Notes under the pieces: model-generated
Told to the model about the DNA's origin: nothing
What the model saw: only the letters and a program-made list of their open reading frames with translations
The model's database searches: none
Shown: piece by piece, positions 1 through 33,772 of the stretch
How the letters are laid out: each line of letters begins with the position of its first letter
Position numbering within the stretch: the first letter of the stretch is position 1
Source: a virus
Reading direction: 5' to 3' (one strand)
Length of the DNA: 33,772 nt
Virus record (IMG/VR): IMGVR_UViG_3300038463_000594
Program-made: the position numbers and the translations under genes

Positions 1-127
1 GAATGCTACAGTTCCCACGGTTACTACTTCATTCGCTCATAATTACACAAGCACTGATATCATCCGTATCGTTATTCCTAGTGGCTTTGGTATGTCGCAA
101 ATAAATGGGCTTGTATCGCCGATTGTG
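1..127. repeat. Terminal direct repeat, copy 1 (identical to 33646..33772); circular-closure / assembly-overlap signature
   Basis: Letter-for-letter identity of 1-127 with 33646-33772. Unique unit = 33,645 bp. Confidence 0.97.
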
Positions 128-1452: not shown

Positions 1453-2070
1453 ATGGCATATAATTCCGCAATACCACAATCAACTGATGCGACCAATGTT
1501 TCTCAACCGCAGATATTGGCTAATTTTACTTCAATAAATACGACACTGTTAGGTGTTGATAGTGCGGGAATGCTTTTTAATGATCAAGCGCCTGCATATC
1601 CAGGGTCGGTGGGTAATGATATAGAAATATTCAGTCGCGTAGCTCAGAATCCCGCTCAAATTGGCGAGAATGTTAACGTATTATGCCTTTCTCAAGCTAA
1701 TGAAATTATAGAATTTACCGGTGGCCTTACGACAATGCCCGGATGGACACGATTGCCAAGTGGTAACCTTATTAAATGGTTTACTGCTGCTGTTCCTTTA
1801 GCGGCCATAGGTGTAAGATCCCAAATCTATACCTATAACTGGACCGTTTCGGCCACTATTCCACGCTTTACTGCTGTCCCTAATATATGGCAAGTAACGA
1901 GCGTTACCGGTGCAGCTAACTTCGATGCCGGTGCGGTGTTTATATCCGACAGAAACCTTACGGCCCTTCAGGCATCTATTCAAGTCGATAGTTATAATCA
2001 ATTGTCACCGGGGTTTATTGGGGGCTGGCAAGCGTTTACGGTATTTTTCTTAGCGATCGGACAAGGATAA
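1453..2070 (+). CDS. Short tail-fibre / receptor-binding-type protein, paralogue 1 of 3
   Basis: 205 aa. GGAGGA SD 7 nt upstream. N-terminus MAYNSAIPQSTD, motif PGWTRLPSGNLIKW and C-terminal FLAIGQG resemble the distal knob domain common in phage tail fibres (from memory). Confidence 0.6.
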   Translation: MAYNSAIPQSTDATNVSQPQILANFTSINTTLLGVDSAGMLFNDQAPAYPGSVGNDIEIFSRVAQNPAQIGENVNVLCLSQANEIIEFTGGLTTMPGWTRLPSGNLIKWFTAAVPLAAIGVRSQIYTYNWTVSATIPRFTAVPNIWQVTSVTGAANFDAGAVFISDRNLTALQASIQVDSYNQLSPGFIGGWQAFTVFFLAIGQG

Positions 2071-2084
2071 TATATGGCATATAA
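2057..2084 (+). repeat. Junction repeat, copy 1 (stop-SD-start between paralogues 1 and 2)
   Basis: TCGGACAAGGATAATATATGGCATATAA. 27/28 identical to 2687-2714. Confidence 0.9.
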
Positions 2085-2700
2085 TTATAATATTCCTCAA
2101 TCAACCGATAAATTTAAGAATTCATATGCTCAATTACAGGGAAACTTCCAATCTATTAACACGGCGCTTCTTGGTGTGGATAATGGGGGCATTCTTTGTA
2201 CCAATCAAGCAACTGACCCTGCAACATCAGCCACGCAGATGGCCCTTTATAGTCGTATCGCCCAAAATACGGTACAGCCGGGAGCATTTGCTAATACCCT
2301 TTGTGTGAGAAAGAATACAAGTGGTAATGTATATGAGTTTACGGGAGGGGCTGCAAACAATCCTGGATGGACACGGTTGCCAAGTGGCATGCTTATTAAA
2401 TGGATGCCCGTAACTATCCCCGCAGAACTTGCTGATACATTTGCTACTTTTAATCAAACATGGCCTACCACGACAGGTGGGTATAATATTCCTGCTTTTA
2501 CTTCAGCACCCACCTATTTCAATCTTATGCCGGTAGCTACCACGGTTACTTCTCCAACGTATGCTAATCCCTATCTGGTGTCAGGATCTCCTACTACCAC
2601 AACGTATACCATTAAAGTTAATAGTTATAACTATGGCATTTTGTTTATAGAGGGATGGGAATCCTTTAATATAAACGTTATTGCTTTCGGACAAGGATAA
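2074..2700 (+). CDS. Short tail-fibre / receptor-binding-type protein, paralogue 2 of 3
   Basis: 208 aa. MAYNYNIPQSTD..., PGWTRLPSGMLIKW ... VIAFGQG. Alignable end to end with the neighbouring paralogues, with a divergent centre. Confidence 0.6.
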   Translation: MAYNYNIPQSTDKFKNSYAQLQGNFQSINTALLGVDNGGILCTNQATDPATSATQMALYSRIAQNTVQPGAFANTLCVRKNTSGNVYEFTGGAANNPGWTRLPSGMLIKWMPVTIPAELADTFATFNQTWPTTTGGYNIPAFTSAPTYFNLMPVATTVTSPTYANPYLVSGSPTTTTYTIKVNSYNYGILFIEGWESFNINVIAFGQG

Positions 2701-2714
2701 TCTATGGCATATAA
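2687..2714 (+). repeat. Junction repeat, copy 2 (between paralogues 2 and 3)
   Basis: TCGGACAAGGATAATCTATGGCATATAA. One mismatch to 2057-2084, 630 bp away. Confidence 0.9.
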
Positions 2715-3327
2715 CGCTAATATTCCACGACCCTTTGATTTCAGATCCGTATCTCAGGCTCAGATTCTTGGCAACTTTGAAGGCATAGGAGCTTCACTTT
2801 TAGGAGTAGATGTTGGTGGACTTGCCATGGGAACCCAGAGAGCTCCTGTTTTAACGGGAACTAATCAAATGGCATTCTATGCACGAAATGCTCAGAATCC
2901 TGCCATACCTAATGATCCTTTTCTTAATGTTGCTTGTGTTCAACGACTTTCCAATGGCGCCGTAACAGAATTCTCAATTTCAGGAGATGATGGCGCTAAT
3001 GATGGGTGGTTTAGGTATCCCAATGGCATATTAGTCAAGTATCAACTTATACAGATTCCGGGCAATAACACCACCTCATTAGGAAGATCAGTTACCTATA
3101 ATTGGCTGGTAAATGCAGGATTTCCGATGTATACCTCAGTGCCATTCCTTATTCAAGTTACCCCGGCACAATATGGCAACATGGCAACCAACTATGTAGG
3201 GGCAAGAGTGTTCTTAGATAGTACTAATCCTGCCACTACGACCGGATTTACTCTTTCAATACAAAGTTATCAAGGTGGCGGCTGGGCTGGATTTCAAGCG
3301 TTTGTTCTCGCTTACGGGTTAGGATAA
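2704..3327 (+). CDS. Short tail-fibre / receptor-binding-type protein, paralogue 3 of 3 (most diverged)
   Basis: 207 aa. MAYNANIPRPFD..., DGWFRYPNGILVKY ... VLAYGLG. Confidence 0.55.
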   Translation: MAYNANIPRPFDFRSVSQAQILGNFEGIGASLLGVDVGGLAMGTQRAPVLTGTNQMAFYARNAQNPAIPNDPFLNVACVQRLSNGAVTEFSISGDDGANDGWFRYPNGILVKYQLIQIPGNNTTSLGRSVTYNWLVNAGFPMYTSVPFLIQVTPAQYGNMATNYVGARVFLDSTNPATTTGFTLSIQSYQGGGWAGFQAFVLAYGLG

Positions 3328-15570: not shown

Positions 15571-15801
15571 ATGGAATTATCATCAATATATAAAGTGATA
15601 TTGCTCATAGTCTCTCTTATTATTGGCGTGAGTGCACATATTATATACTTGCGCCAATCAACATCGCCTCTGGTTAAAGAGATTGCTCAAGATGTTGAAG
15701 AAATCTCTGAAGAAGTAATCAAGGATGAATCGGGTATGGATATTCGCTCATTTACTGATATGGTATCTACTCCTCAATCACCACAAATGCATCAGATATA
15801 A
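15571..15801 (+). CDS. Small single-pass membrane protein with acidic tail (holin/antiholin or unknown)
   Basis: 76 aa. TM helix IYKVILLIVSLIIGVSAHIIYL. Last gene of the rightward late block. Confidence 0.6.
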   Translation: MELSSIYKVILLIVSLIIGVSAHIIYLRQSTSPLVKEIAQDVEEISEEVIKDESGMDIRSFTDMVSTPQSPQMHQI

Positions 15802-15807
15802 AGAAAA

Positions 15808-15833
15808 CCCCTCGTCTGAAACATGACGAGGGG
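15808..15833. terminator. Intrinsic terminator at the convergence point (best oriented for the minus-strand erf operon)
   Basis: CCCCTCGTC-8 nt-GACGAGGGG. On the minus strand it is followed by TTTTCTTTAT. On the plus strand it is flanked by A-runs. Confidence 0.75.
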
Positions 15834-15840
15834 AAAAATA

Positions 15841-15862
15841 TTCTCCCTTAAAACAAGGAGAA
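15841..15862 (-). terminator. Second, weaker minus-strand terminator in tandem
   Basis: Minus strand TTCTCC-10 nt-GGAGAA followed by TATTTTT. Confidence 0.45.
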
Positions 15863-15933
15863 CGGAGTTGTCCCAGAAGGGCCACCTGGAAAGGAAAAAA
15901 GGAAGAAAAACCAGGCGCCCAAATTTATTAAAC

Positions 15934-16413
15934 TTATCGTTGATAACTTGCATCATTATCTTCATTTTGCGGCTGAAGTCCTAATATTGTCAATGTTTCA
16001 TATCTTCGTGCATATGTTCTTCTTGATCCTATCTGCTGCATAAGTGTTAGTTTTTCCTTACTTTTTTCATATTCCTCAGGAATAATCGCAGGAACAGTAA
16101 ATTGAGACTCGAAGAATTGGCCGCTTATATGAGTGATTCTGGTGTGCAATACACCATCTTTGGATGAATATTGCCTGAATGCTAAGCCATATTTATTAAG
16201 AATAGGAGTAACCATCTCAAGGATATCTTCAAGAACTGCATATTTTCCTACAAATGACTTATGAGTCTTAAGAACCGGCCCGAATTCCATTTGGGATGCT
16301 ATAAAAGCAGGAATAATCTGGTCTTGTTCCTGAGATTGCAACGAAGATAATTCCATTCCTCTTCGTATCAAAGCATCTCGCTCTTTAATCAGCTTTTCTA
16401 GTAGGTTTTCCAT
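15934..16413 (-). CDS. erf: ERF-family single-strand annealing recombinase
   Basis: 159 aa. GKYAVLEDILEMVTPILNKYGL and IGSRRTYARRYETLTILGL match the P22 Erf pattern (KY.Y..DIL..V.PLL..GL ... SYARKY.L..L.G). Confidence 0.85.
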   Translation of the reverse strand: MENLLEKLIKERDALIRRGMELSSLQSQEQDQIIPAFIASQMEFGPVLKTHKSFVGKYAVLEDILEMVTPILNKYGLAFRQYSSKDGVLHTRITHISGQFFESQFTVPAIIPEEYEKSKEKLTLMQQIGSRRTYARRYETLTILGLQPQNEDNDASYQR

Positions 16414-16484
16414 TATTTACCTCTTACAGCATTCATTGTTTTTATCATGCAATGGGCTCGTATCATGTCTAAATTATTTTCCAT
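16413..16484 (-). CDS. 23-aa micro-ORF translationally coupled to erf (tentative)
   Basis: AGGATAATTT-ATG. MENNLDMIRAHCMIKTMNAVRGK. Its TAA shares an A with the erf ATG (ATAATG). Its initiation region is the 29-bp repeat copy. Confidence 0.35.
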   Translation of the reverse strand: MENNLDMIRAHCMIKTMNAVRGK

Positions 16485-16502
16485 AAATTATCCTATCGTT
16501 TG
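16474..16502. repeat. 29-bp perfect direct repeat, copy 1
   Basis: TTATTTTCCATAAATTATCCTATCGTTTG, identical to 16885-16913. Confidence 0.97.
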
Positions 16503-16555
16503 GAGGGGACCGCCATAAGCAGTGAAAGACGGCCCTCAGAGTAGTAGTGAAGTCT
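16502..16555 (-). repeat. Conserved intercistronic hairpin element, copy A
   Basis: GGAGGGGACCGCCATAAGCAGTGAAAGACGGCCCTCAGAGTAGTAGTGAAGTCT. Shares a 23-nt core and a 16-nt tail with 18082-18133. Stem 5+3 bp with a 2-nt bulge. Confidence 0.85.
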
Positions 16556-16895
16556 ATATCTCTATATTTTTAATATTTATTTCAATATCTAATAAATCTG
16601 CAATTGTGTTTATAAATTCTCTAAGAGCAATACTCTTCTTCTCTACAATTTCTTCTGAATCAGTATTATGTATAGAAAAAAATATTGATTGTTCTTCTAA
16701 GGTAAGAGAAAAAGTCACTGCATTAATGAGAGAACATAAATCTGGCATACAATTAATAACTTTTTTTCTATCTTCTTCATTGGATATGCTTGTATATACT
16801 TTAAACAGAAACTTTTCTAATTTTTCTTCTCCAGCTTTAAATAATTCTGTTCCTATCTCTTCTATTCTCATTATTTTTATTTCTTTATTTTCCAT
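16554..16895 (-). CDS. Acidic early orphan protein (cassette cargo)
   Basis: 113 aa, Glu/Asp/Ile-rich, very AT-rich coding sequence. SD AGGATAA. The first 11 nt lie inside repeat copy 2. Confidence 0.7.
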   Translation of the reverse strand: MENKEIKIMRIEEIGTELFKAGEEKLEKFLFKVYTSISNEEDRKKVINCMPDLCSLINAVTFSLTLEEQSIFFSIHNTDSEEIVEKKSIALREFINTIADLLDIEINIKNIEI

Positions 16896-16913
16896 AAATT
16901 ATCCTATCGTTTG
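16885..16913. repeat. 29-bp perfect direct repeat, copy 2
   Basis: Identical to 16474-16502. 411 bp between the copy starts. Confidence 0.97.
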
Positions 16914-17143
16914 CAGCAGTTTTCATCATTATCATGTAAGGGGAATCCATGCTGATAATATTCATCTTTATGTTCAATTATTCCCGACAGTCCGAAGCTC
17001 TGTCCATCTTCATAATTACTTACACACGTCCTACTGCAGAACTCTTCTTTCTCAAATGCTTTAAACTTAAACACTTCGTCTTTTAACTTCGAGAAGCATG
17101 AATAACATTTGATAGAGTTACGAGATTTAATAGTTAAATACAT
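16904..17143 (-). CDS. Small Zn-ribbon protein (C-x2-C ... FCS-x2-C type)
   Basis: 79 aa. KCYSCFSKL...EEFCSRTCVSNY. AAAGGAAAAAG SD. Confidence 0.65.
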   Translation of the reverse strand: MYLTIKSRNSIKCYSCFSKLKDEVFKFKAFEKEEFCSRTCVSNYEDGQSFGLSGIIEHKDEYYQHGFPLHDNDENCCKR

Positions 17144-17164
17144 CTTTTTCCTTTGTTTTAATTA

Positions 17165-17192
17165 TTGACTACATTAATATAACTGATATAAT
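17165..17192 (+). promoter_or_regulatory. Rightward early promoter 1 (drives HTH paralogue 1)
   Basis: TTGACT-16 nt-TATAAT. Confidence 0.6.
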
Positions 17193-17204
17193 TAATATTA
17201 TCAA
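17176..17204 (-). promoter_or_regulatory. Leftward early promoter 1 (drives the Zn-ribbon...erf operon), overlapping the rightward one
   Basis: Minus strand TTGATA-17 nt-TATATT. Its -10 lies in the spacer of the + promoter. Confidence 0.5.
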
Positions 17205-17242
17205 GATAAATGTGATAATTAACATAAGCATAGGGGTCATCG

Positions 17243-17790: not shown

Positions 17791-18069
17791 TTATTCATAC
17801 TTATTTACTGGTTTTTGTTCAACATCGTATATTATTGTTACTTTTTTGGTCTTATCTTTTGGGCGTATCGATACTTCTATTTTTTCAAAGAAAAAATACT
17901 GAGAAGGATGTATAATTAATGTTTCATCTTCCTTAACAGATGCGACTAATGTGCCATTTATGGTTATGAATACAGTTTCATTTGAATTATTTAATATACC
18001 CAACATTTCATTATCATTTAGTCTTTCAACAATTAACTTTTGTTGTAACCCTATTTCTATATTATTCAT
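17791..18069 (-). CDS. Early orphan protein
   Basis: 92 aa. Follows hairpin copy B. Confidence 0.65.
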   Translation of the reverse strand: MNNIEIGLQQKLIVERLNDNEMLGILNNSNETVFITINGTLVASVKEDETLIIHPSQYFFFEKIEVSIRPKDKTKKVTIIYDVEQKPVNKYE

Positions 18070-18081
18070 ATATCTTTCTTA

Positions 18082-18133
18082 GGCGGGGACCGCCATAAGC
18101 AGTGAAACGGTCCCCGCAGTAGTAATGAAGTCT
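18082..18133 (-). repeat. Conserved intercistronic hairpin element, copy B
   Basis: GGCGGGGACCGCCATAAGCAGTGAAACGGTCCCCGCAGTAGTAATGAAGTCT. Perfect 10-bp stem GCGGGGACCG/CGGTCCCCGC and 15-nt loop. Confidence 0.85.
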
Positions 18134-30063: not shown

Positions 30064-30837
30064 TTATCTCTTTCTATTATTTGAATTCTCTTTGGGTGTA
30101 ACCCATCGACAGTTTTCTTTCTCATAGTTTCCATTATTATCGATTCTATCAAGTTGTTTCCCTTCAGGTCTAAATCCCATATCTAATAAGAAACCACTAA
30201 ATGTATGCCATCTATCACAAATCTTTATTCCACGAGCACCATAGTATTTATAATTCGAATTTGTCTCACTGTTGCATCTTGATTTCATTGATCGCCATGT
30301 TATATAAGTTGGTTCATTATTCATACCATGCTTAGTAATATTACATCTATTGCATTGCCTTGTTCTTCCAAGTTTCAATCTAGACGCTGCTATCTTTAAT
30401 TCTCTTCCGCATTCGCATTGACATAATACATATCGAGCGGTTGGTTTTTTTGAAGCGCTAATATGCAATAATAGTTCTTCATCTTTATAGATTCTTTCAT
30501 TGCCTACTATCTTAAATTCTCTACAAAATATCTTTCTTTCTTCCCTTGGTACATAAATAACGACTTGTTTAACAAGCCACTTACCATATATTTTCCCAAT
30601 CATTTCTTCGGTATTTATATATCGTTCTTTTTTGCTACATTCAGAGCACTGTGATGATCTACCATTTTTTAAATTAACTGATCTTACGGGTTTTATGGTT
30701 CCGCATTCACACTTACAGTTATAATATTTATATATTGCCGAACTGTTCTGATTAACTTTTATTTCTTCTATAACTTTCCATCTTCCAAACGTATTTCCTA
30801 TCATTCCTACTATTCCTACTTGCTTGTCATTTGTCAT
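30064..30837 (-). CDS. Free-standing HNH-like endonuclease with two N-terminal Zn-ribbon repeats
   Basis: 257 aa. C-terminus TYITWRSMKSRCNSETNSNYKYYGARGIKICDRWHTFSGFLLDMGFRPEGKQLDRIDNNGNYEKENCRWVTPKEN, a family usually annotated as HNH endonuclease in phages. Two CxCxCG...CxxC repeats. Visibly more AT-rich than its flanks. Confidence 0.7.
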   Translation of the reverse strand: MTNDKQVGIVGMIGNTFGRWKVIEEIKVNQNSSAIYKYYNCKCECGTIKPVRSVNLKNGRSSQCSECSKKERYINTEEMIGKIYGKWLVKQVVIYVPREERKIFCREFKIVGNERIYKDEELLLHISASKKPTARYVLCQCECGRELKIAASRLKLGRTRQCNRCNITKHGMNNEPTYITWRSMKSRCNSETNSNYKYYGARGIKICDRWHTFSGFLLDMGFRPEGKQLDRIDNNGNYEKENCRWVTPKENSNNRKR

Positions 30838-30992: not shown

Positions 30993-31940
30993 ATGGCAAT
31001 AACAACCACAAGTACTCTTCCTAGCCCAGTGCAGCAAACATTTAATATGAAGCTGTTGGCGGTGCCTGTTCCGTATCTCATCATGAAGATACCTGCAATG
31101 AAAGAAAAGCTACCACGCAATGGTGGTAATACCATGAGATTCAGACGTTACAATCCACTTGTACCTTCAACAGTGCCATTGGGTAACTCTGGTATAACTC
31201 CCCCATCTCAGAACTTGACCGCATTAGATATTGATGCGCAAATATCTTGGTATGGGCAGTGGTTAGAAATTAACGAACAAGTAGTATTGCAAAACCAAGA
31301 AGCAGTTCTTAATGAAGCTGCTATTCGTCTTGGCGTAGCAATGAGAGAAACTGAAGATTTACTCGTTTCTACTATGTTGGCTACTACCGCAACACAAATT
31401 AACTGCGTGTACGGTACTAACGGTCAAAACCCAACCAATCTCACTAAGACTGATATCGACAATGTGGTTAAGACATTGCTTGGTGCTAGTGCTCATATGT
31501 TTACTGATAACATTGAAGGTGATTTGAAGTTTGGTACATCTCCTGTTCGTCCGTCTTACATTGCGCTGGCGCATACGGACTTAACCAGCAACTTGAATAA
31601 CGTTCAGAACTTTATTAACTCATCTCAATATCCTAACCAACAACGCGTGTTGGATGGCGAGTGGGGATCAGTTGATAACATGAGATTCTTGGTATCACAA
31701 TACGGATCTATATCTGCTAATGCTTCTTCTGCTGCACAGAACGTATACAACATATTCTGCTGCGCTAAAGAATCTTATGCCGTTGTTGATCAGGAAGGTG
31801 CAACACCAATATTTATTTACAGACCTGCGGTATATTCTGGTCCATTGGCTCAGAACGTTACGGTTGGCTATAAATTTGCTCAAGTTCCACGCTTACTCAA
31901 TGATGCATGGTTGGCTAATCTTCGTGCAACATTAAGTTAA
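30993..31940 (+). CDS. Major capsid protein (HK97 fold, N4-gp56-like family)
   Basis: 315 aa. AAGGA SD. Position after the scaffold candidate. Overall pattern (GGNTMRFRRY...ISWYGQWLEINEQ...) resembles the N4-gp56 capsid family from memory. Confidence 0.75.
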   Translation: MAITTTSTLPSPVQQTFNMKLLAVPVPYLIMKIPAMKEKLPRNGGNTMRFRRYNPLVPSTVPLGNSGITPPSQNLTALDIDAQISWYGQWLEINEQVVLQNQEAVLNEAAIRLGVAMRETEDLLVSTMLATTATQINCVYGTNGQNPTNLTKTDIDNVVKTLLGASAHMFTDNIEGDLKFGTSPVRPSYIALAHTDLTSNLNNVQNFINSSQYPNQQRVLDGEWGSVDNMRFLVSQYGSISANASSAAQNVYNIFCCAKESYAVVDQEGATPIFIYRPAVYSGPLAQNVTVGYKFAQVPRLLNDAWLANLRATLS

Positions 31941-33027: not shown

Positions 33028-33049
33028 ACCCAGTAAGGCCTTACTGGGT
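33028..33049 (+). terminator. 22-nt perfect palindrome after the capsid gene pair (attenuator / mRNA-stabilising hairpin candidate)
   Basis: ACCCAGTAAGGCCTTACTGGGT. No clean U-tract. Confidence 0.4.
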
Positions 33050-33574: not shown

Positions 33575-33772
33575 ATGCCAGCGAATAATGGTGCGGTTGC
33601 AACCCCTTTATATCAGCCCGCAATGCGGGTAATTACGAACATAACGAATGCTACAGTTCCCACGGTTACTACTTCATTCGCTCATAATTACACAAGCACT
33701 GATATCATCCGTATCGTTATTCCTAGTGGCTTTGGTATGTCGCAAATAAATGGGCTTGTATCGCCGATTGTG
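33575..33772 (+). CDS. 5' part of the junction-spanning 123-aa gene (continues at base 1..301)
   Basis: ATG 33575 lies 2 nt after the previous TAA. It reads through the window end in phase with 1..301. Confidence 0.8.
   Translation, partial: MPANNGAVATPLYQPAMRVITNITNATVPTVTTSFAHNYTSTDIIRIVIPSGFGMSQINGLVSPIV
33646..33772. repeat. Terminal direct repeat, copy 2
   Basis: Identical to 1-127. Confidence 0.97.

Follow-up and report, generated by a model that had tools for sequence, protein, structure and literature searches.

A probable moron-like insertion between duplicated 29-bp gene junctions in the erf operon of an uncultured phage

Known routes of gene gain and sampling of the phage

The systems closest to the locus described here concern the accessory genes of tailed phages. 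Morons and their accretion were described by Hendrix, Juhala and colleagues and are summarised in PMC2839356. Promoter-early stem-loop (PeSL) cassettes are known from T4-like phages (Arbiol et al. 2010, PMC2839356; Comeau et al. 2014, PMC4122927). In lambdoid phages, relaxed homologous recombination by Rad52-like recombinases takes place at mosaic boundaries and linkers (De Paepe et al. 2014, PMC3945230). An earlier, sequence-only reading of the DNA analysed here had likened one of its loci to PeSL cassettes. This likeness holds in part: a stem-loop at variable-gene boundaries and a chimeric hairpin are shared, whereas promoter content and copy number differ.

The window, meaning the whole stretch of DNA that was analysed (33,772 nt; IMG/VR record IMGVR_UViG_3300038463_000594), is circularly closed, positions 1-127 being identical to 33646-33772, which gives a unit of 33,645 bp with an overall GC content of 41.2%. 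Exact-protein look-ups with ORF113, Zn79, Erf, HTH71, ORF76, orf62 and orf59 recovered at least 12 contigs from ∼12 samples and three assemblers (Logan k=31, MEGAHIT k141 and JGI). Complete genomes among them measure 33,612-33,674 bp, and four complete genomes read through the repeat region, three of them of 33.6 kb, seen in full or in part. The near-identical contigs share 99.9-100% identity with the window over 17243-15934.

Beyond this set, relatives are scarce. Matches to INPHARED phages in tblastn did not exceed 44% identity for TerL and 38% for Erf, which leaves the phage with neither a cultured relative nor a host call; a blastn search of INPHARED with the region returned no match. An Erf-based locus search of IMG/VR and GTDB found no locus, the 5′ 32-mer of erf is absent from IMG/VR, and a 25-mer search of JGI metagenome contigs gave a single match, to a contig already known. 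The three IMG/VR loci retrieved with TerL (L019, L020 and L021) are relatives too distant for comparison; in L020, Erf shares 30% identity and both hairpin and cassette are absent. The phage clade is uncultured and poorly sampled.

The junction repeat and the genes around it

The features of the region are listed in the order of leftward transcription, by window coordinates and strand.

18083..18131, minus strand: stem-loop element A, between orf62 and orf92; preface ACTTCATTACTACT, 12-bp stem, 11-nt loop, dG -24.1, z -3.6
17144..17242, no strand assigned: divergent promoter region for Zn79 (leftward) and the Cro/CI-like HTH71 (rightward), with the region's best sigma-70-like matches
16904..17143, minus strand: Zn79, a 79-aa CxxC...CxxxC protein, first gene of the leftward erf operon
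16885..16913, minus strand: J2, the promoter-proximal junction copy; last three codons of Zn79 and TAG, Shine-Dalgarno sequence (SD) GGATAA, and ATGGAAAATAA, the start of ORF113
16554..16895, minus strand: ORF113, the cargo gene; acidic (pI 4.65), GC 24.3% and GC3 14.9%, both the lowest of the genome
16503..16553, minus strand: stem-loop element B; 14-nt preface ACTTCACTACTACT (16553-16540) and an imperfect hairpin, dG -15.3
16474..16502, minus strand: J1, the erf-proximal junction copy; identical to J2 over 29 nt, its SD and ATG starting ORF23 (ORF155 in variant contigs)
16413..16484, minus strand: ORF23; its first nine codons, MENNLDMIR, are those of ORF155 and its stop overlaps the erf ATG
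15934..16413, minus strand: erf, an Erf-family single-strand annealing protein (PF04404, E 1.5e-14; phrog_2324, E 1.6e-23)
15808..15863, minus strand: two canonical intrinsic terminators closing the erf operon (GC stem and T-run)

The perfect 29-bp direct repeats that had been reported at 16474-16502 and 16885-16913 were confirmed. The 29-mer (J; TTATTTTCCATAAATTATCCTATCGTTTG, plus strand) occurs exactly at these two positions; a search allowing up to 3 mismatches found no further copy in the genome, nor did any of 100 dinucleotide shuffles contain a match. It is the longest exact repeat of the 33,645-bp genome and reaches 32 nt if one mismatch is allowed. The second-longest exact repeat, a 23-nt hairpin core at 16505-16527 and 18085-18107, abuts it. 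Neither the exact 29-mer nor the hairpin core has a match in IMG/VR. Between the two copies lie, as had been stated, exactly ORF113 and stem-loop element B.

Each copy had been read as the end and stop of the Zn-ribbon gene, a Shine-Dalgarno sequence and the start of the next gene. This description fits 16885-16913 but not 16474-16502, where the CAAACGATAG part terminates no gene and is a non-coding duplicate. Because J1 thus carries a functionless piece of the Zn gene 3′ end, the two copies reflect duplication, not convergence. Ten nucleotides of J are coding sequence belonging to a single, specific gene. The core of J, AGGATAAT-N-T-ATGG, is frequent in this genome as a ribosome-binding site (RBS), the other copies of which share only ∼13-15 nt with J, and an M-E-N start is common to three consecutive genes.

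The cargo gene is a compositional outlier, with neighbouring genes at 34-37% GC. An exhaustive HMMER search of 1.84 billion representatives returned a sole homologue, P0004, encoded on the relative L040 (34% identity over 98 aa, pairwise E 5e-16). In a search of 5.8 billion clusters, ORF113, Zn79 and ORF155 gave self-matches and no homologues, and ORF113 has no match in Pfam, PHROG or PADLOC. AlphaFold2 models of ORF113, alone and with its single homologue, reached a pLDDT of 55-57, too poor for a fold search. Since its GC content is extreme while that of the L040 homologue (31%) blends with its neighbours, ORF113 seems to have been imported recently from a phage richer in AT, and not transposed internally. 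Two kinships proposed for it, with ORF155 as a tandem paralogue and with orf92, were rejected because no similarity was found.

The spot next to erf shows a second change in gene content. A 23-aa ORF overlapping the erf ATG had been placed at 16413..16484; the location is correct, but that reading missed that ORF23, on comparison of contigs, is evidently the remnant of a 155-aa gene and not a gene of its own. In contigs L005 and L010, the ORF that begins in the erf-proximal repeat runs on as a 155-aa protein (ORF155, MENNLDMIRELNSY...). The window and these contigs agree as far as 16457 and again from the erf ATG (16413) onward, the right breakpoint falling exactly on that ATG; in the window, 43 unrelated nt (16456-16414) stand in for the remainder of ORF155. 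Since ORF155 is intact in otherwise identical contigs, the ATG of the repeat starts a real gene. A further contig, L006, breaks off at exactly the left breakpoint, which would be expected of a sample containing both forms. Gene content at this spot is demonstrably in flux among otherwise 100% identical contigs. Derivation of the 43-nt tail from the 3′ end of an L040-type HTH_17 gene was rejected, the alignment being no better than shuffles (p ∼0.48). In L005, the 33 nt upstream of erf match the leader of the L040 Zn78 gene at 32/33 positions, and 14 nt are shared with the Zn79 leader of the window.

Recombination between the repeats had been predicted to join the Zn-ribbon gene to ORF23, with its stop overlapping the erf ATG, and this geometry holds. 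The 411-bp presence/absence polymorphism that would accompany it was sought and found in none of at least 12 near-identical contigs: ORF113 and both repeat copies are present in every contig spanning the region, and no contig joins Zn79 straight to the ORF behind J. A circle would carry the form CC-J-A and a precise deletion the form G-J-T. The diagnostic 31-mers of the deletion junction Zn79-J-ORF23 (GCAAACGATAGGATAATTTATGGAAAATAAT) and of the circle junction (CCAAACGATAGGATAATTTATGGAAAATAAA) were each found in 0 of 50 loci. Because the population is essentially clonal, these missing variants are weak evidence against low-frequency excision.

The relative L040 and the stem-loop element

L040, a 36-kb contig (Logan ERR10755945), is syntenic with the window, with amino acid identities of 89% for Erf, 83% for TerL, 80% for RusA, 73% for orf62 and 46% for Zn79, whose L040 orthologue has a sub-threshold zf-FCS match. 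Its gene order is Zn78, one junction copy, ORF86 and erf, ORF113 being absent there. The single junction (CTGCTGTAAAAGATAGGGTAATTTATGGAAAGTAG) matches J at 24 of 29 positions and has no second copy. The gene behind it encodes an HTH_17/MerR protein whose N-terminus (MESRQKVIKELNAY) matches that of ORF155 (MENNLDMIRELNSY). By its sequence, and on the strength of one informative relative at ∼20-25% DNA divergence, the L040 Zn78 junction is to all appearances an empty site. Since the window copies are identical at 29/29 positions while the L040 junction has diverged at 5/29, the duplication post-dates the split of the lineages. The identity of the 29-mers could also persist through gene conversion, in which case a young event is not required.

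In L040, the ORF113 homologue lies downstream of the orf62 orthologue and is followed directly by ACTTCACTACTACT and the hairpin, whereas at the corresponding window site orf62 is followed directly by hairpin A, with no ORF113-type gene. At the level of DNA blocks, the presence and absence of ORF113/ORF121 are reciprocal at two sites between the window and L040. A candidate decayed repeat flanks the L040 homologue (19/24 nt, p ∼0.01, a post hoc comparison). Together with the recurrence of duplicated leader and translation-initiation-region (TIR) segments, it hints at a process more regular than random illegitimate joining.

Three copies of the stem-loop are available: two in the 33.6-kb genome and one in 16.4 kb of L040, all co-oriented with transcription. 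The L040 copy has a 10-bp stem and the loop TCACTGCTTA (dG -23.4, z -3.2). It and copy A form strong hairpins, whereas copy B is weak (z -0.6). In the alignment of A, B and L040, 86% of cells are paired in a common register, compared with 33-58% in a slid register, and two stem pairs carry compensatory changes on both sides. DNA identity of the element is 77-83% between the window and L040, with differing genes on both sides. At sites that separate A from L040, the preface and 5′ arm of copy B are four L040-like to one A-like, and its loop and 3′ arm are zero to five (Fisher one-sided p ∼0.024, counted on alignment A1). This distribution suggests that copy B is chimeric, with a crossover or conversion inside the loop, an event that would account for its imperfect stem. 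The orf62-orf92 site of copy A is the native position of the element, L040 having it at the same place. The element is most likely native after orf62 and accompanies ORF113-family genes.

The nature of the stem-loop was narrowed by exclusion. No T-run follows any of the three copies, their loops measure 11-13 nt, and a terminator scan makes no call. An ordinary intrinsic terminator is therefore out, the element having no U-tract, while the genome has canonical terminators. A sigma-70 scan found no promoter in the element, with counts at shuffle level and a stem-to-ATG gap of just 13-18 nt, and a promoter-containing PeSL is out by the same scan. Rfam returned nothing on the stem-loop at E≤1, the only match in the early region being a sub-threshold one on the terminators, and a degenerate hairpin pattern had no match in IMG/VR and GTDB genomes. 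The element is most likely a putative transcript-level intercistronic element, such as a 3′-end stabiliser or a processing or factor-binding site.

Origin of the probable insertion and its place among known systems

We hold, with moderate confidence, that a foreign module made of ORF113 and the 51-nt stem-loop was inserted into the early leftward operon, at the very initiation junction that links the Zn gene to its neighbour, and that the 29-bp repeat is a fresh duplication of the junction. The best reading is a recent, moron-like insertion whose joints, made by microhomology, duplicated the junction. The ancestral order would have been promoter, Zn gene, junction, next (MENN) gene and erf, because L040 retains the single-junction arrangement. 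The module would have come from a more AT-rich relative, as we infer from its composition, through two microhomology or illegitimate joints. The route may have been template switching, or unequal crossover between co-infecting genomes in which different genes followed this junction. The departure joint would lie 11 nt inside the resident gene, after ATGGAAAATAA, and the return joint 18 nt upstream of the ATG, within the last codons of the Zn gene and 29 nt above the departure joint, so that the 29 nt between the joints would have been copied twice. No donor with ORF113 in its original setting was found, and microhomology at the joints would amount to at most 1-3 nt, a value that is partly guessed.

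In template switching or illegitimate crossover, a return joint upstream of the departure joint yields a direct duplication of arbitrary length, with joints of a few nucleotides. This is a class of mechanism, not a family of elements, and the joints at the present locus are inferred ones. Translation of ORF113 would start at the SD and ATG of the resident gene and use its first codons, while the displaced gene would retain an identical copy of them. Because both genes thereby keep an SD and an ATG, the insertion product would be functional by construction. The fossil of the event would be the useless Zn gene 3′ end (CAAACGATAG) behind the hairpin. Since the J core is common as an RBS and three genes share an M-E-N start, short homologies between initiation regions would have been available as crossover points; the near-identity of the sequence upstream of erf in L005 to the L040 Zn leader is a second example supporting crossovers of this kind.

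The locus had further been called a unit of gene gain and loss. The gain part stands, supported by the empty site in L040, the other location of the gene there, the GC outlier and the CAAACGATAG duplicate; the loss part has found no deletion variant behind it. Later precise loss through the repeats, by Erf-type annealing or replication slippage, is plausible. That no loss was observed implies that ORF113 is probably under selection, or that the event is very recent. The companion proposal, that the junction served as the recombination substrate driving the insertion, gained no supporting evidence, and the repeat is more simply a product of insertion. On this reading the repeat is what the gain left behind and might later serve for loss, any role as a driver being putative.

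Compared with morons, the locus shows two of three defining traits: an extra gene stands between genes that are adjacent in L040, and its composition is deviant (ORF113, GC 24.3% and GC3 14.9%). In addition, a stem-loop trails the gene, and the setting is a non-essential early region. The third trait, a promoter and terminator of its own, is missing, as ORF113 borrows the SD, ATG and first codons of its resident neighbour and no U-tract follows the hairpin behind it. Nor does the moron definition include a perfect 29-bp duplication of the target junction.

As in lambdoid mosaics, exchanges stop at gene boundaries, leader or initiation segments recur at module borders, and the phage encodes an Erf-family annealase, a type active on short or diverged homology (PMC3945230). 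Unlike in those mosaics, the short sequence is duplicated here in cis and not shared in trans between two genomes. Because Erf belongs with the Rad52-like annealases, which are efficient on such homology, repeat-mediated loss is plausible, although it was unobserved. Two other kinds of element were considered and rejected. An integron cassette has attC-type core sites and an integrase; no core site (RYYYAAC...GTTRRRY) was found in or beside the hairpin and no integrase among the scanned ORFs. An IS/MITE-type element was set aside for want of terminal inverted repeats and a transposase. The case is a clean, datable accessory-gene gain, not a new kind of element.

Resemblance to PeSL cassettes goes further. 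An ORFan is bracketed by a repeated intergenic regulatory sequence, a conserved G-run/C-run stem-loop lies just 3′ of the upstream stop at variable-gene boundaries (in three copies), ORFan indels or replacements bounded by the motif distinguish relatives (one relative only), within-loop exchange has left signs, and scarless excision is geometrically possible. On the other side, the element here lacks a -35/-10 promoter; the repeat consists of 29 bp of SD, ATG and coding ends, compared with ∼100 bp of promoter and terminator; two copies are present per genome instead of dozens grouped in hyperplastic regions; the genome is one of 33.6 kb with Erf and RusA, not T4-like; and neither indel polymorphism nor mini-circle junctions were found among the contigs searched.

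The alternative that survives best builds on this resemblance. ORF113, stem-loop and junction would form a small circle, a PeSL-like mobile cassette that enters and leaves at initiation regions or stem-loops by Erf-catalysed short homology, with the 29-mer and the hairpin as working recombination substrates, as the sequence-only reading had proposed. We consider this unlikely, although it explains several observations. Campbell-type entry of a J-bearing circle yields exactly the order J-cargo-J; retention of the stem-loop amid differing flanking genes is linker behaviour; its stem shares the GGGG...CCCC pattern of PeSLs; leader/TIR segments reappear where modules meet; the chimeric look of hairpin B points to exchange within the loop, by crossover or conversion, which has been reported for PeSLs (PMC2839356); and Erf-family recombinases are efficient with short or diverged homology (PMC3945230). 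Against it, the element is devoid of a promoter, both in the short space between stem and ATG and by the shuffle-level sigma-70 scan, each genome has just two hairpin and two J copies, and a J-bearing circle presupposes the very structure to be explained. Moreover, J is not a generic linker, as 10 of its nucleotides belong to the coding sequence of one gene, and deletion variants and circle or deletion junctions are absent from the contigs searched. A bolder form, in which ORF113-family genes and their stem-loop are PeSL-like cassettes that hop between initiation junctions, driven by Erf and possibly as mini-circles, and duplicate ∼25-30 bp of target each time, is speculative and also unlikely. 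If true, it would extend the shuffling of regulatory cassettes from T4-like myoviruses to small Erf/RusA phages, in a promoter-less variant.

A dedicated mobile element, in which an enzyme of unknown kind moves ORF113-family genes and leaves ∼24-29 bp target-site duplications at gene junctions, is very unlikely. It would account for the family's two independent locations, one per phage, both flanked by direct repeats that derive from the 3′ end of the gene upstream (29/29 in the window, 19/24 in L040). However, target duplications of known prokaryotic transposons measure ∼2-15 bp; there are no terminal inverted repeats, and no inverted repeat links the cassette ends. Domains of a transposase, integrase or nuclease are missing from ORF113 and its neighbours. 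The window repeats enclose the hairpin, whereas those of L040 leave it outside, and the L040 repeat is weak and post hoc (p ∼0.01).

Still less probable, and close to refuted, is a history free of recombination, in which the 29-mers are alike as strong translation-initiation regions, through selection or gene conversion. The recurrent RBS AGGATAAT-N-T-ATGG and the three consecutive M-E-N genes speak for it, but the identity runs 10 nt further upstream, where one copy is coding and the other has no function. The other RBS copies share too little with J, only the core being common, so the 29-mer is not an initiation region conserved across the family, and the 5/29 drift of the L040 junction indicates that its bases are not strongly constrained. 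An assembly artefact, a collapsed or chimeric join at a short repeat, has a negligible chance, being backed by nothing more than the general risk of metagenome contigs and contradicted by the same structure in ∼12 samples and in Logan (k=31, which exceeds the repeat length), MEGAHIT k141 and JGI assemblies.

It is debated whether accessory ORFans arrive at gene boundaries through the homology of conserved linkers or through random illegitimate joining followed by selection. The insertion described here is young enough for its joints to be intact, with a perfect 29-bp duplication running from the 3′ end of one gene across an SD into the first codons of the next. The locus combines an empty site in a relative, the same kind of gene and stem-loop elsewhere, and a second gene-content polymorphism a few bases off. 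While it reveals no new mechanism alone, it is a good natural substrate for measuring the gain and loss of genes mediated by junctions.

Genome ends and genes of the other modules

The first 127 nt of the window (1-127) are identical to its last (33646-33772). The window represents a genome of 33,645 bp, assembled as a closed circle or with terminal redundancy. At 33028-33049 lies a perfect 22-nt palindrome, ACCCAGTAAGGCCTTACTGGGT, longer than any other exact inverted repeat in this genome. Several genes of other modules were also recorded.

Genes elsewhere in the window
1453-3327, plus strand: three tandem paralogous genes, 205-208 aa
13336-15555, plus strand: putative tail-fibre genes
30064-30837, minus strand: free-standing gene for an HNH endonuclease (phrog_374, E 4e-58)

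The tandem paralogues are 65-76% identical in DNA and share conserved ribosome-binding sites and MAYN starts. One putative tail-fibre protein (402 aa) has a C1q-like C-terminus by a sub-threshold match; the other (329 aa) is glycine-rich with GGX runs. The HNH endonuclease gene lies antisense inside the structural module, a short distance upstream of the gene for the major head protein (30993-31940).

orf92 and the region between erf and orf76

17791-18069, minus strand: orf92, the gene downstream of the stem-loop hairpin A

With a GC content of 26.2% (GC3 19.4%), orf92 is the second-lowest in the genome, and the 9-mer TATGAATAA is found at both of its ends (18070-18062 and 17799-17791). Unrelated genes occupy its position in L040, a related syntenic phage contig, and orf92 is possibly another recent insertion. 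Between erf, which encodes an Erf-family annealing protein, and orf76, an Rfam anti-hemB match (window 15800-15866, minus strand) scored 29.7 bits, below the gathering score of 49.5; it coincides with the canonical terminator pair and most likely reflects nothing more than the hairpins of that pair.

Variable segment and leader sequence upstream of erf

In L040, ORF121, the homologue of the window's ORF113, is bracketed by an imperfect direct repeat with the exact core AAATCAGTAA. This repeat was noticed post hoc, and its score (19/24) is reached by ∼1% of segment pairs at equal spacing. Directly before erf, some contigs carry a 155-aa gene (ORF155) plus a 33-nt leader-like stretch, while others, elsewhere 100% identical, carry an unrelated 43 nt.

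Repeat, variable segment and leader coordinates
L040 7971-7994 and 8353-8376: imperfect 24-nt direct repeat
Window 16414-16457; L005 2173-2672; L010 467-934: ORF155/43-nt variable segment
L005 2640-2672; L040 9413-9444; window 17161-17174: recurring leader segment

The right breakpoint of this difference is exactly at the erf ATG, and contig L006 ends at the left one. In the ORF155-bearing contig L005, the 33 nt directly 5' of erf match the 5' leader of the L040 Zn-ribbon gene at 32/33 positions, and ATGTAGTCAATAAT is common to this stretch and the leader of Zn79, the window's Zn-ribbon gene. The erf-upstream stretch is a second, nested instance of a leader/initiation segment duplicated at a module border.
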